Below, in pieces: positions 6,015 to 10,875 of a DNA stretch of 10,875 nucleotides. Origin of the DNA: a virus; the UHGV virus genome UHGV-0301773. One strand, 5' to 3'. The notes under the pieces are model-generated. The model searched no databases. It saw only the letters and a program-made list of their open reading frames with translations, and was not told where the DNA came from. The position numbers were made by a program, and so were the translations under genes. Every line of letters begins with the position of its first letter. Position 1 is the stretch's first letter.

Positions 6015-6541
6015 TTGCGTAACTCCGATAACTCGTTAAAACGTTCCATAAACATCCCGTAGGCATGGCCCGGTGCCAGTGGAATCACGTTGAACATCTC
6101 TGTTGCCGGGATGCCTTCCAGTACAGGCCAGAAAGAGCCATCATCAAGCCCGAGATCGCGGCGTTCGGTTGCCAGCATGATGAGATCGGCATATTTCACA
6201 GGCGTGCTCATAACCGGGGGTAACCCGTATTTCTCACGGATTACGGCATCTATTTTTTCTTCCATCCGTTTATAGTCAGGAAGAAGGCGTTTCAGTGGAG
6301 CGGGGATGTCCTGGCAATATGCTTCTGTTGCATCATGCATTAACGCTTCAAAAGCAAATTCCTGCGGTACCAGCTGGCTGCAAAGCACCGCATGCTGGGC
6401 GACGCTGTAGAAGTGTGAAAGATGTCCTGCAAAGCGACAGATATTTGAAAGGGAAACTGCGATATCGTTAATCACGATGTCGTCTTTATTTATCTTGTCA
6501 TAATAAAAATGCTTCCCGGAAAAAGTTTTAATAAATGACAT
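6011..6541 (-). CDS. yfdR: HD-domain phosphohydrolase, YfdR-like 5'-deoxynucleotidase
   Basis: Probable start ATG at 6541 with RBS GGAG 6 nt upstream (track ORF begins at a GTG at 6553); HD motif (AQHAVL ... LMHDATEAY); N-terminus MSFIKTFSGKHFYY matches my recollection of E. coli CPS-53 YfdR. Confidence 0.8.
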   Translation of the reverse strand: MSFIKTFSGKHFYYDKINKDDIVINDIAVSLSNICRFAGHLSHFYSVAQHAVLCSQLVPQEFAFEALMHDATEAYCQDIPAPLKRLLPDYKRMEEKIDAVIREKYGLPPVMSTPVKYADLIMLATERRDLGLDDGSFWPVLEGIPATEMFNVIPLAPGHAYGMFMERFNELSELRK

Positions 6542-6669: not shown

Positions 6670-7494
6670 TCAGGCGGTGAAAGTACCAATAAAGGTTTCT
6701 ACTTTGCTGTCTTTGAATTTCTCAACAAGCAGATCACGAAATTCGTTAGCCATTTCTTCCTGCATCGCTTCCAGCTGAATAATGCGCAGAACCAGTACAG
6801 GACGATCGCCAGTGATAATGCTGAGGCGTAATTTAAACGGACGTTCTTTCAGACCTTCAAACGGAACGCATTTAAATTCAAATGCCACTGGCATAATGTC
6901 TTTGGTCTTCGCTTCGACAGACTCCATCAGAGAGCGTTTGCCGCTGAAGTCATTGTCTTCAAAATCAGCGGTCTGGTTTGCTTCAATTGTGATTTTACGG
7001 ACTGCCGCAGCCGCTTTGGTTGCCTGAATGGTGTCACCATTAGCATCAAAGCCCACAAGGTAGTCGGCCCAGTCTTCAATCCATTCTGCCAGTGACTTCT
7101 GGGAGTTACGCTCGCCATTAACAGACAACAGAGCAGAAAACGGTGCTGTCTTTTTCAGTTTGAGGGTGGCGGTGTTATCTGCGTGACCTGGTTCATCAAT
7201 AGTACCCAGGTTAAGCACACTGACGGCTCGCATATTATCGGCATCGATAAAGCAGCGGGTGCCTTCATCTGCAAGATCTTTAGAATAACGGGTAAAGTCA
7301 TCGATGCTGACAGTGGAAAGCGCACCACGGAAACGGAAGCGATTTAAATTAAATTTTTCCAGATCATGAATGCGGAAATTCTCAGGCAATGCCACAGCAT
7401 CGGCACCAATCTTACTGATAATTTCATTAACACCCTGAGCAGAAATAAGGGCATGGATTTGATTAATTGCGGTTGCGTCTAAGTTCTGAGACAT
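6670..7494 (-). CDS. yfdQ: YfdQ-like (DUF2303 family) prophage protein
   Basis: 274-aa ORF, ATG at 7494 with RBS GAGGA 7 nt upstream; N-terminus [25 protein letters not shown] matches my recollection of CPS-53 YfdQ. Confidence 0.75.
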
Positions 7495-8317: not shown

Positions 8318-8333
8318 AAAAAGATAGGCTCAT

Positions 8334-8360
8334 AAAAAAACCGGGGATACCCCGGTTTTG
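8334..8360 (-). terminator. Rho-independent terminator downstream of the repressor gene
   Basis: CCGGGG-ATA-CCCCGG hairpin (8341-8355) flanked by AAAAAAA (8334-8340) and TTTTG; on the minus strand the hairpin is followed by seven U, 20 bp after the cI-like stop. Confidence 0.7.
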
Positions 8361-8379
8361 CGATAGTGAGGAAGATGTG

Positions 8380-9033
8380 TCAAAAATCCATTATTACTTG
8401 TTTGACAAGACCAACTATTCTGCAGTTCTCACCGCATTCAATAGTTTTATAGTTAGGATTTAGTGGGACGAGATACCTGTTCGGCCAGTCCTCAACAAAT
8501 TTTTTGAGTGTCGCTTCTTGCCCACCATTGATATGGGCAACAACGATTTTTCCGTTAATACACTCTGTATCAATAATATCTGGCTCTACGATAACGATAG
8601 AACCTTCTGGTATCGATGGTGAGCCGAGGGGATTGGTCATTGAATCACCACGGACCCGTAGTGCAAATGCCATTTCTGATACAAGGGCGGTAGTATAAAC
8701 CCACTCTTCAGCATCTTCTTTCCTGACACCAGGCTCCGTCATTGTCCATGAACCCGCCTGAACCCACGAGATGAGGGGGACTTTTTTAACTGCGAATATT
8801 TCAGGTTTTAGATTTATCTTTGGTTCAGGCGAGCCTTTTCCGCTAACAAGCCACAGAGGATCGCATTTAAGTGCGTTGGCTAGGGCTTGAAGGTTGGCTC
8901 CATTTGGTTGGTAGTCGTCCTTTTCCCATCCAGTAACCGTGACACGGTTCACACCAGTCAAATCAGCCAGTGCTTGTTGTGTCAGGTTCAGTTCTTTTCG
9001 CCTTTGGCGAATACGATCACTCATGTTCATCAT
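8380..9033 (-). CDS. cI: cI-like prophage repressor: N-terminal XRE-type HTH plus C-terminal S24 (LexA-like) self-cleaving peptidase domain
   Basis: HTH region RIRQRRKELNLTQQALADLTGVNRVTVTGWEKD; C-terminal domain with RVRGDSM (Ser nucleophile) and EATLKKF (Lys general base); start at 9033 or 9024, overlapping an operator. Confidence 0.9.
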   Translation of the reverse strand: MMNMSDRIRQRRKELNLTQQALADLTGVNRVTVTGWEKDDYQPNGANLQALANALKCDPLWLVSGKGSPEPKINLKPEIFAVKKVPLISWVQAGSWTMTEPGVRKEDAEEWVYTTALVSEMAFALRVRGDSMTNPLGSPSIPEGSIVIVEPDIIDTECINGKIVVAHINGGQEATLKKFVEDWPNRYLVPLNPNYKTIECGENCRIVGLVKQVIMDF

Positions 9034-9097
9034 GTAGGCAATCCTACCACATGCCCATGTAGGATTCTTGACATTGGTATGTTGGATATCCTACATT
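9032..9097 (+). promoter_or_regulatory. PR/PRM-like divergent promoter region with three operator copies
   Basis: Sites ATGTAGGCAATCCTACCACAT (9032-9052), ATGTAGGATTCTTGACAT (9057-9074), ATGTTGGATATCCTACAT (9079-9096); plus-strand -35 TTGACA at 9068-9073 and -10-like TACATT at 9092-9097, about 30 nt upstream of cro-like ATG 9129. Confidence 0.6.
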
Positions 9098-9128: not shown

Positions 9129-9326
9129 ATGCGGAAATCCGACGTGATTAATTATTTCGGCGGAGTTTGTAAAACCGCCGAAGCCCTAGGTATTAAGCAT
9201 CCGTCTGTTTCAGAGTGGCCTGAGATTATTCCTGAAGGCCGAGCGTACCAGTTAGAAAAAATTACTAACGGGAAACTGAAAGTTGACGTGTCTTTATATC
9301 AAAAGACTAACAGTGCTGCGGCATAA
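9129..9326 (+). CDS. cro: Cro-like small HTH regulator
   Basis: 65-aa ORF divergent from the repressor, RBS GGGAGA 5 nt upstream; HTH-like segment GGVCKTAEALGIKHPSVSEW. Confidence 0.75.
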   Translation: MRKSDVINYFGGVCKTAEALGIKHPSVSEWPEIIPEGRAYQLEKITNGKLKVDVSLYQKTNSAAA

Positions 9327-9353: not shown

Positions 9354-9938
9354 GTGGGTAAAGAACCTGAATGGAAAGTTGATAAACAACCAGCATGGCT
9401 GGTGGCAGCAATACGAAGAACGATTGCTGATTTACCTCATGGCTATGAGGAAGCAGCAGAAATTCTTGGATTGTATAAATCTGATGATATCACCCCAGCA
9501 AAAGATCAATTGCATAACAGACTGCGTAGCGGTGGGGATCAAATTTTTCCACTTGAGTGGGTCATGGTTTTACAGGATGCCAGTGGTACCAGGCATGTAA
9601 CAGATGCAATAGCCCGTCGTAGTAATGGGGTGTTTGTGCCGCTGGTGGTCATTGATGACATTGACAATGGTGACATTAATCAGCGGCTGATGGAGTCAAT
9701 AGAATGGATTGGCAAGCATTCCCAGTACTTACGCAAGGCAACTGCTGATGGAGTTATTGACCAGGCTGAGCGTGAGCAAATCGAAGAGAACAGCTACCAG
9801 GTAATGGCGAAGTGGCAGGAGCATTTAACACTGTTATTTCGTGTTTTTTGTGCGCCGGAAAAGAGTAACGCCCGCGAGTGTGCAGCTCCGGGCGTCGTGG
9901 CGTCGATTGCTTCTGGTTGTGGAGAAACTAACGCATGA
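9354..9938 (+). CDS. cII-like lysogeny regulatory protein (CP76/YdaT-like family, tentative)
   Basis: GTG start at 9354 with RBS GAGGAA at 6-nt spacing; 194 aa; position right after cro; family assignment from memory and uncertain. Confidence 0.6.
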   Translation: MGKEPEWKVDKQPAWLVAAIRRTIADLPHGYEEAAEILGLYKSDDITPAKDQLHNRLRSGGDQIFPLEWVMVLQDASGTRHVTDAIARRSNGVFVPLVVIDDIDNGDINQRLMESIEWIGKHSQYLRKATADGVIDQAEREQIEENSYQVMAKWQEHLTLLFRVFCAPEKSNARECAAPGVVASIASGCGETNA

Positions 9939-10875
9939 ACAGTTTAACGGCAAATAACCGTTTGTCGCAACAGCTGGTGGTCAGCGTCGCTGAACACCTG
10001 TTGTTACGGCATGAATGCAGATTACCAAATCACCTGGCTGTAAGTAACCACAGAGAACTTTACCTGACTGTGGGGGGCGAGTTGTGCAGGAACTTAACCG
10101 CTGGTTTCGTGACGGAAGAGGACTTTATGTTCATGTTATTCGTTGGGAGCCAGAAACACAGCGCGTTATCTATCTTCGCAAAGACTACCCGCATGAGTGC
10201 TTTAGTCCTTTGTGGAAATTCAGGCGTGATTTTGTTGAGTGTGAAGGACCACCAGCACATTGATTCTGCCATTCCGGGACGTTACACTGTTCAGGCACCT
10301 TATAAAGCGGGTGCCGGGATTGGCGTCCTGAAATTGATTACTGAGCATAACCGCGCTCATGCGGTTTTTTCGTGTCATGAGCATTGCTACGCCCAAATTA
10401 TGGTGGGGCGTACAGGGCCGACTTCGGTCGGGCCGGGTTCGGTAGTCTCCGGTAACGCCAACCCTGTACGTCTCACCACCTCTGTGATTGGCGTCCCATG
10501 TGGTGAGTTTTCTAAAAAACTGACTACCGGGGCTGTCACCATGACTACTCTCCCAACCCTCTCTCAACCTGAAATTGCCATCGTTGATGGTCAGGCTGTT
10601 ACATCTTCTTTGGCTGTTGCTGACTTCTTCTCTAAACGTCATGACGATGTTCTGAAAAAGATCCGCATTTTGGATTGTTCTCCAGAGTTTTGTGCCCGCA
10701 ATTTTGCGGAGACATCAATTTTGGTACGCCAGCCCAACGGCGGTACTCGCAAACTTCCTTGCTATCAAATAACCCGCGACGGCTTTGCGTTTCTTGCTAT
10801 GGGTTTCACGGGTAAACGTGCTGCCCAGTTCAAAGAGGCATACATCAATGCCTTTAACCAGATGGAGAAACAGCT
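9935..10875 (+). CDS. Long open reading frame, 3' partial, carrying a Rha-family phage regulatory domain from about 10541; 5' boundary unresolved
   Basis: ATG at 9935 overlaps the upstream stop (ATGA); frame stays open to the window end (more than 310 codons). From ATG 10541 the translation MTTLPTLSQPEIAIVDGQAVTSSLAVADFFSKRHDDVLKKIRILDCSPEF...ITRDGFAFLAMGFTGKRAAQFKEAYINAFNQME matches the Rha signature as I recall it. Missing from the ORF track because it has no stop in the window. Confidence 0.5.
   Translation, partial: MNSLTANNRLSQQLVVSVAEHLLLRHECRLPNHLAVSNHRELYLTVGGELCRNLTAGFVTEEDFMFMLFVGSQKHSALSIFAKTTRMSALVLCGNSGVILLSVKDHQHIDSAIPGRYTVQAPYKAGAGIGVLKLITEHNRAHAVFSCHEHCYAQIMVGRTGPTSVGPGSVVSGNANPVRLTTSVIGVPCGEFSKKLTTGAVTMTTLPTLSQPEIAIVDGQAVTSSLAVADFFSKRHDDVLKKIRILDCSPEFCARNFAETSILVRQPNGGTRKLPCYQITRDGFAFLAMGFTGKRAAQFKEAYINAFNQMEKQ

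Follow-up and report, generated by a model that had tools for sequence, protein, structure and literature searches.

Organization of the locus

The DNA considered here is the viral genome UHGV-0301773, a stretch of 10,875 nucleotides (nt) that we call the window, and the region of interest extends from position 9,354 to its end. The window represents the left portion of a lambdoid prophage of the e14/mEp460/ST64B type, in which the early-right operon (cro, ymfL) is probably joined to an RNA-controlled antirepressor gene, four coding layers being superposed on one DNA. The reading that we favour, and that we think likely to be right as a whole, combines a ymfM-type open reading frame (ORF), a gene of the DUF4222 family nested in it, an RNA immunity cassette of the P4/P1 type and a Rha-family gene, under a control resembling that of eta and kil in P4. 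The stretch is present in thousands of Escherichia coli and Salmonella prophages; among 5426 complete E. coli genomes, 2329 have a match to some part of it, the nearest being that of E. coli T309.Ta3 (99.6% identity).

The annotation of this region is split three ways, namely one protein of 381-387 aa named 'Rha' or 'peptidase', a DUF4222 protein plus a shorter protein, or ymfM. The single protein of 381-387 aa is called in mEp460, ST64B (Sb41), Lys8385Vzw and T309.Ta3, and the 59-aa DUF4222 protein together with a shorter Rha or 'ash' protein is called in phage 1720a-02 and, by the Prokaryotic Genome Annotation Pipeline (PGAP), in other genomes. Two features have been left unmarked by annotators: both RNAs of the cassette, and the apparent origin of the Pfam 'Ash' domain as their translation.

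The long, eta-like open frame begins at ATG 9935 on the plus strand and is cut by the window end (9935..10875); it comprises the N-terminal part of the ymfM-type ORF, the translated RNA cassette ('Ash') and the Rha sequence. An earlier inspection of this DNA, hereafter the sequence-only reading, had pointed out that this frame meets no stop before the window end and that its start is ATGA-coupled. Both remarks hold: translation gives 313 stop-free codons, the other two frames being full of stops, and the ATG overlaps the TGA of the ORF at 9354..9938 (plus strand), a ymfL-type, CII/CP76-like gene (Pfam Phage_CP76, E = 1.7e-6; ymfL is the PGAP name of a homolog). In an E. coli relative that is 99.6% identical, the coding sequence measures 1164 nt and would yield a product of 387 aa.

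The nested DUF4222 gene and the overlapping ymfM-type frame

In the −1 frame of the long ORF lies the DUF4222 gene, of 59 aa and with a GTG start (10084..10263, plus strand). The sequence-only reading had recognized this alternate-frame ORF and the GGGGGG run that precedes its GTG, and both are real; its coordinates have to be corrected, the GTG lying at 10084, one base before the 10085 that it gave, and the run at 10072-10077 instead of 10069-10074. The peptide gives a full-length match to Pfam PF13973 (51.1 bits for a cut-off of 27, profile positions 4-51 of 53), and NCBIfam holds no family for DUF4222. In the comparison with 69 unique relatives (82-99.6% nucleotide identity), 19 of the 28 variable sites fall at the third position of DUF4222 codons, and the ratio of nonsynonymous to synonymous polymorphism (pN/pS) in this frame is 0.03 in the window clade and 0.30 across 19 sequences from several genera. 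The homologs are mostly 57-62 aa long and all begin at the same Met, and 22 residues are invariant among 18 of them. An AlphaFold2 model (predicted local distance difference test score, pLDDT, 85) takes the form of a small β-barrel, and a fold search with this model against the PDB returned generic SH3/KOW/Tudor-like small barrels only, with a best E of 0.05 and no functional lead. Judged by these patterns of conservation, DUF4222 is a real conserved gene with its own independent start.

The coding part that belongs to the ymfM-type ORF only (MNSLTANNRLSQQ...LRHECRLPNHLAVSNHRE; 9935..10083, plus strand) has a pN/pS of 0.41 in its own frame within the window clade, and of 0.35, versus about 1.2 in the other frames, among 19 relatives from several genera. 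An amino-acid motif in this part is common to the relatives, and the YmfM of E. coli K-12 begins alike, with an MNSLT start. These ratios place the unique N-terminal part under purifying selection. Over DUF4222, the ymfM frame shows no amino-acid constraint (pN/pS 1.39 across 19 multi-genus sequences), yet it is open. At DUF4222 codons 4, 18 and 28 the use of NTA or NTG would stop the ymfM frame, and only NTT or NTC are found there, with purine-ending codons in 0 of 146 cases; at codons 14 and 31, which pose no such risk, GTG, CTG and TTG are often used. By exact calculation, the chance that the ymfM frame would stay open under synonymous recoding of DUF4222 is 0.02-0.10 per sequence, and the frame is open in all 14 diverged representatives. 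The DUF4222 and ymfM-type frames, both of which carry signatures of selection, are by these measures overlapping genes, as one of the options put forward in the sequence-only reading had it. For that reading the homologs cut both ways: the main frame is continuous in them, which speaks against a frame anomaly, and the alternate peptide is conserved as well, which speaks for it.

An ORF in the same relative frame also overlaps DUF4222 in 31 cassette-free relatives (Citrobacter, Enterobacter, Kluyvera, Kosakonia, Raoultella and others). Its start is an ATGA- or ATGG-coupled ATG at −167, −176 or −179 in 29 of them, in the same phase as the −149 of the window, and in the remaining two (L089 and L108) the first ATG is more internal. 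The ORF always ends at +157 of DUF4222, or at +160 or +163 where codons have been inserted. At this position the window clade has GTG in the long frame (DUF4222 Cys53, TGT), so that no stop is formed and the frame continues. We also note the layout downstream in 29 of the 31 cassette-free loci, where a gap of exactly 9 nt separates the ymfM stop from the next gene, whose ATG is in the same reading frame. That gene is an ORF of about 280-455 aa, an O-type replication gene in annotated phage relatives; its Shine-Dalgarno (SD) sequence overlaps the ymfM stop, and the DUF4222 stop overlaps its first codons.

The guanine run ahead of DUF4222

The G6 run (10072..10077, plus strand) is SD-like for GTG 10084, from which a spacer of 6 nt separates it. 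It is best read, from the comparison of relatives, as the ribosome-binding site of DUF4222 and not as a slippery or phase-variable tract, because a purine-rich SD-like motif always precedes the DUF4222 start in relatives (GGAGG, AAGGAG or GGGGG, 6-12 nt before it). The opposite view would be that the true product is a fusion of about 109 aa between the 9935 ORF and DUF4222, obtained through sequencing error, phase variation or a −1 frameshift at G_GGG_GGC. In the 9935 frame, of which the DUF4222 frame is the −1 frame, the run has the formal pattern X_XXY_YYZ, and the sequence-only reading was right that one extra G would fuse the two, its estimate of about 110 aa being close to the actual 109. 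Such an allele exists: a G7 run encoding exactly this fusion (P0052) is carried by 47 blocks of the collection and by 5 complete genomes.

We nevertheless hold this fusion to be very improbable as the true product. The G6 run is kept in 66 of 69 unique relatives, and about 980 of 987 matching E. coli complete-genome records are without G7, which is represented by 5 exact records and 1 near match. As the G7 records share linked single-nucleotide polymorphisms, they look like one lineage rather than the outcome of active switching, and the frequent tract-length polymorphism of a phase-variable homopolymer is absent. In distant relatives the run is replaced by GGAGG or AAGGAG followed by ATG; in ST64B and in a Citrobacter relative (L088) a TGA separates the run from the DUF4222 start, and therefore no fusion is possible there. 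The common start and narrow size range of the DUF4222 homologs point in the same direction, and the 9935 frame stays open for 52 more codons past the run, which would be superfluous under a frameshift model. The homopolymer indel and the phase-variable or frameshifted gene, both entertained in the sequence-only reading, accordingly lose their ground. What the G7 allele does establish is that the 109-aa fusion is tolerated, not that the tract switches. Its carriers are E. coli 2014C-3011, SMN013SH2, SMN152SH1, SMN197SH3 and OkiPb01679, mainly cattle strains and strains of the Shiga toxin-producing E. coli (STEC) type.

Two of the routes to the fusion were considered on their own account. Sequencing error at the G run was rejected, the identical G6 being present in hundreds of independent genomes. 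Programmed −1 frameshifting, which was considered because a constrained N-terminal part precedes a constrained domain in the −1 frame, was also rejected: there is no conserved slippery site, several relatives have −1-frame stops before the DUF4222 start, and the SD motif and the start codon are conserved.

The RNA immunity cassette

The end of DUF4222 runs into a putative constitutive promoter (10260..10288, plus strand; the position of PisrK and of P4 PLE), which is read from the sequence as a −35 hexamer TTGATT at 10260-10265, a 17-nt spacer and a −10 hexamer TACACT at 10283-10288, with a start near G10295. Both hexamers are invariant in the 69 relatives. The site scores 8/12, below the threshold of our scan, and its position is that of the experimentally defined isrK promoter of Gifsy-1 (PMC4825925); we infer that it is active. 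The TGA of DUF4222 (10261-10263) is contained in the TTGATT hexamer, and the same hexamer provides a conserved stop in that frame in contexts without DUF4222.

From the presumed start onwards, the DNA encodes a small RNA (sRNA) of the IsrK/P4 seqA type (10295..10371, plus strand; Rfam RF01394, 59.3 bits for a threshold of 50), whose match is ended by an intrinsic terminator-like hairpin with its stem at 10349-10366 and a T run (terminator scan). It is followed by an antisense RNA of the C4/P4 CI type, the equivalent of STnc1160 (10396..10483, plus strand; Rfam RF01695, 82.3 bits for a gathering threshold of 45), and by a seqC-type target region (10486..10532, plus strand) that holds the direct repeat D3 and the inverted repeats I5 and I9. 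The C4 RNA carries two boxes, the loop CGGTAGTC (10440-10447) and the bulge ACGCCAA (10455-10461). The bulge is complementary to TTGGCGT at two places, in the seqA box inside isrK (10319-10325) and at 10488-10494, the surrounding GATTGGCGTCC at 10486-10496 being a repeat of 10318-10328; the loop is complementary to GACTACCG (10522-10529), 12 nt before ATG 10541. Among 108 unique cassettes of 29 box (specificity) types, the match between C4 loop and seqC averages 9.1 nt within an element and 5.9 nt when the seqC is that of another element, and the stems of relatives differ by compensatory changes such as CCGAC-TTCG-GTCGG and GCATC-GAAA-GATGC. By family assignment and pairing alike, this is an RNA immunity cassette of the P4/P1 type, and it corresponds to the isrK-orf45-anrP module of Gifsy-1. 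For 10264-10540 the sequence-only reading had rightly retained a continuous main frame; it had missed the two Rfam RNAs and the terminator, and had not made the link with P4 eta/kil.

Cassettes of the isrK type also occur in tandem, two or three per viral contig and mostly at a spacing of exactly 656 nt: at 6536 and 7192 in L126, at 3563 and 4219 in L138, at 9874, 10530 and 11186 in L149, at 4703 and 5359 in L191, and at 6925 and 7794 in L194. This suggests arrays of RNA-controlled small genes.

The Rha-family antirepressor and its starts

The gene that follows the cassette is the short form of a Rha-family antirepressor (10541..10875, plus strand, cut by the window end), at the position of P4 kil and of Gifsy-1 anrP. 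It matches Pfam Phage_pRha (E = 4e-27) and TIGR02681, the domain corresponding to aa 223-312 of the long frame. ATG 10541 lies in frame with ATG 9935, 606 nt or 202 codons downstream of it, and a GGGG SD-like run is found 8 nt before it. That the Rha domain begins at this ATG in the manner of an N-terminus had been noticed in the sequence-only reading, and the relatives give the reason: ATG 10541 would be a real start because they carry GAGG or AAGGAGG before the corresponding ATG.

A further start may lie upstream. The orf45-type AUG at 10400..10402 (plus strand; ATGGTGGGG) precedes the Rha start by 141 nt or 47 codons, in the same frame and with no stop between the two, and its use could give a Rha isoform longer by 47 aa. 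It stands at +106 of isrK, and an AUG of the Ash frame is found at +102, +105 or +114 in most contexts. As a separate observation, in Shigella phage Ss-VASD (2537-2620) a match to the Rfam family sRNA-Xcc1 (79.6 bits) is located between the Rha-type and the antitermination genes, adjoining the former on its downstream side and lying upstream of the latter.

An open frame through the cassette

Of the 69 unique relatives, 68 keep the long frame open, and in the sole exception stops appear only from codon 243, within the downstream gene. The insertions and deletions found 5' of 10541 measure 6, 3, 3 and 3 nt, all multiples of 3. Between 10264 and 10540 the long frame has no stop column in the alignment; the second frame has 13 polymorphic ones, and the third has 13 polymorphic and 1 fixed, and this pattern holds both 5' and 3' of AUG 10400. 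A survey extended to 141 unique cassette contexts finds the frame open to at least +400 in 137, the exceptions including the Gifsy-1-like type. All 137 open contexts possess a start codon 5' of the sRNA start, and in 92 of them this codon lies no more than 12 nt from the end of an upstream ORF. The encoded peptide bears no mark of selection, pN/pS being 0.8-1.1 in every frame over 10295-10540 in the window clade. As stop columns are lacking and pN/pS is close to 1 in all frames, the frame across the cassette is, on this comparative evidence, selected for its openness, and the peptide is unconstrained.

The same figures bear on the idea that the frame is never translated 5' of 10400 or of 10541, in which case a conserved, G+C-rich RNA would be free of stops by chance and gene callers would simply take the longest ORF. 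The want of amino-acid constraint across the cassette agrees with this idea, as do the short forms chosen in some annotations and the Gifsy-1-like cassettes that are devoid of the long frame. It fails to account for the 26 positions at which the other two frames gain or lose stops while the long frame does so at none, for the indels confined to multiples of 3, for the DUF4222 synonymous codons that avoid stops in the long frame, or for the start codons found ahead of the sRNA, many of them next to the end of an upstream ORF. We consider it quite unlikely.

The main-frame segment 10265-10540 matches the Pfam family Phage_ASH (PF10554; E = 2e-10). This family, and the 'ash family protein' of PGAP, is in our reading the conceptual translation of the seqA-CI-seqC RNA cassette, because it covers the RNA-bearing part of P4 Eta as well as that of the window; the two segments that correspond are 10265-10540 in the window and 8330-8704 on the minus strand of P4. 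One might argue on the contrary that the product of the long frame is a true protein of several domains (YmfM-N, Ash, Rha) in which Ash acts as a protein, the RNA motifs merely happening to lie inside its coding sequence. The Phage_ASH matches of the window and of P4 Eta, the protein of 381-387 aa called by many annotators and the maintenance of the open frame can all be cited for this proposal, which would even be compatible with the favoured reading if the fusion protein is made in addition. It is difficult to reconcile with a pN/pS near 1 in every frame over the cassette, with changes that track the pairing of the RNA stems quoted above and are radical for the peptide, and with an Ash 'domain' that is fused to unrelated downstream genes and, in phage P88, lies out of frame over a real gene. 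This proposal appears to us improbable, though somewhat less so than an untranslated frame. In P88 (P2-like; 1453-2073) the cassette precedes a 76-aa 'derepression protein' gene, over which the Ash-frame ORF runs out of frame for 206 codons.

Precedents and a model for the control of Rha

The nearest precedent for such a nested arrangement is eta/kil of P4. In the part of PMC10111431 that deals with these genes, CI is encoded within eta, and Kil is described as a truncated form made on read-through (citing Forti 1999); full-length Eta is made only from the upstream promoter and coupled to the upstream gene, its translation preventing termination. The P4 sequence gives the same two Rfam matches as the window: a minus-strand ORF (8812 or 8764 to 8168) spans isrK at 8692-8615 and C4 at 8507-8420 in the same frame. 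P4 Eta matches Pfam Phage_ASH at aa 21-145 and NCBIfam Icd-like at aa 145-192, the latter corresponding to Kil, and the Kil start (..EAAIMATTLTPSHPEF) aligns with ..GAVTMTTLPTLSQPEI at ATG 10541 of the window. In both elements, the long ORF starts before an internal constitutive promoter, is coupled to an upstream gene, spans seqA (isrK) and CI (C4) and is in frame with a short product encoded after seqC, and the boxes of the window's CI-type RNA target both seqA and seqC, as those of CI do. The two elements differ in several respects. The short product of the window is a Rha-family antirepressor, to which NCBIfam Icd-like does not match; its long ORF has a ymfM-type beginning, 360 nt before the sRNA, and shares DNA with DUF4222, a second gene that is conserved independently; and P4 is a satellite, whereas the host element of the window is a lambdoid prophage.

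The second precedent is the isrK-orf45-anrP module of the Salmonella prophage Gifsy-1, in which translation of orf45 is needed for translation of the antirepressor and the orf45 peptide sequence is not conserved; the same study likens IsrK to P4 seqA and the stable RNA downstream to P4 CI (PMC4825925). Gifsy-1 resembles the window by its IsrK sRNA with a terminator, its C4-like stable RNA (STnc1160), its downstream antirepressor, a leader AUG placed some 106 nt from the beginning of the sRNA (+106 in the window, +107 in Gifsy-1) and a leader peptide of unconserved sequence. In Gifsy-1, however, orf45 is out of frame and ends in an AUGA on the anrP start, a translational coupling through termination and reinitiation, whereas AUG 10400 of the window is in frame with no stop; moreover, antQ lies upstream, and there is no long upstream frame, the frame being open only from −21 to +147.

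Two other systems share part of this design. The c4-icd-ant operon of the P1/P7 immI region reportedly relies on a C4 antisense RNA with two boxes and repeated targets, whose pairing is said to block the ribosome-binding site of the first gene ahead of the antirepressor, and the antirepressor is reported to be made in two in-frame sizes. Its gene order and its leader gene (icd in P1) differ from those of the window, and to our knowledge neither a terminated sRNA of the IsrK type nor a spanning long ORF has been described in P1. Rz/Rz1 of phage lambda provides the model of a small gene with its own start wholly inside another frame of a larger gene, and in this the two loci are alike, DUF4222 being nested in a different frame of a longer translated ORF; the proteins and their function are unrelated, and in the window amino-acid constraint is found in one only of the overlapping frames. 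What is already known is thus the cassette and the nested long/short arrangement (from P4, and partly from Gifsy-1 and P1). What differs here is Rha as the short product, the in-frame leader AUG, and a ymfM-type start that overlaps a second conserved gene.

The model that we propose combines these elements. In the lysogen, the internal promoter alone would fire, giving the IsrK sRNA and, by read-through of its terminator, the C4-like RNA, on transcripts devoid of the 9935 start. These RNAs would keep Rha silent, the C4 boxes pairing with IsrK and with the sites that precede the Rha ribosome-binding site. The loss of the CI-like repressor would release transcripts from the promoter upstream of cro, and these would carry the 9935 start. 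Ribosomes coupled from ymfL would then continue across DUF4222, the terminator and the cassette as far as rha, and this translation would lower termination and bypass the RNA control of Rha. A translated conduit of this kind would be selected for the openness of its frame and not for its peptide, and the effect of translation on termination finds indirect support in the selection against stops that goes with unconstrained amino acids. An override of RNA immunity by translation from the upstream operon, of the P4 eta type, would then appear to be widespread before lambdoid antirepressors, including those of Stx phage relatives, and the window would combine it with a second, nested gene.

The following points weigh against this model. 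The G7 allele, which cuts the long frame off its start, persists in complete genomes. Gifsy-1, the sole lambdoid cassette studied experimentally, is without the long upstream frame, and an eta-like layer is therefore not required for the function of the cassette. Finally, the sequences compared are related and recombining, so that the counts of stop columns are not counts of independent events.

ymfM and the SfiC assignment

The counterpart of the ymfM-type ORF in the e14 element of E. coli K-12 is ymfM itself (b1148, 112 aa). It is reported to be SfiC, an SOS-inducible inhibitor of cell division (bioRxiv 10.1101/2020.11.19.390815), an inhibition on expression being reported for the K-12 clone only. 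The K-12 gene resembles that of the window by its position after ymfL, its ATGA coupling, its MNSLT start and a DUF4222 ORF nested in its −1 frame. It differs in ending at +157 of DUF4222, 9 nt ahead of the following in-frame ATG, where the window runs on, and in having an N-terminal segment distinct in sequence and length (179 nt in K-12, 149 nt in the window). The nested K-12 ORF of 59 aa has a TTG start and an AAGGAG SD motif, and is also found in a K-12-like e14 locus (L101, 1322-1680). Between 1203822 and 1204180 of NC_000913.3 only ymfM is annotated, as 'cell division inhibitor YmfM', the DUF4222 ORF being left out.

At the ymfM locus, purifying selection across genera acts on the DUF4222 frame, and neither Pfam nor NCBIfam has a family for K-12 YmfM or for other YmfM translations. 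The reported SfiC gene contains, in other words, a far better conserved gene in another frame. That K-12 ymfM includes an unannotated DUF4222 gene, and that DUF4222 is the constrained frame, is possibly new; our literature search, within the library used, found no paper linking DUF4222 with ymfM. The study that assigned SfiC cloned the ymfM ORF and used a deletion that removes both genes (bioRxiv 10.1101/2020.11.19.390815). Since the cloned ORF holds 53 of the 59 DUF4222 codons and the deletion takes away both genes, either frame may be the one that blocks division.

A tentative explanation, to which we give less than even credence, is that the ymfM/sfiC effector is the nested DUF4222 β-barrel. 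YmfM would then be mainly a conduit, with 50-60 constrained N-terminal residues and a stop-free tail, and its frame would serve to bring ribosomes from ymfL to the gene that follows. In the clade of the window, it would have merged with a P4 eta-like ORF, and prophage induction would in this way override the RNA immunity exerted on the antirepressor. If this explanation is true, the assignment of SfiC to YmfM needs frame-specific re-testing.

Neighbouring genes

The remainder of the window conforms to its place in a lambdoid prophage. The minus strand encodes an integrase (168-1265) and a CI-like repressor with helix-turn-helix and S24 domains (8380-9033). A promoter-like site (9068-9097; promoter scan) and Cro (9129-9326) follow, and a scan for tRNA genes in the window found none. 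Adjoining the integrase are a protein with a SocA/Panacea antitoxin domain (1748-2236) and, after it, an unassigned ORF of 182 aa (2259-2807); together they may form a cargo pair with a toxin-antitoxin or defence role.

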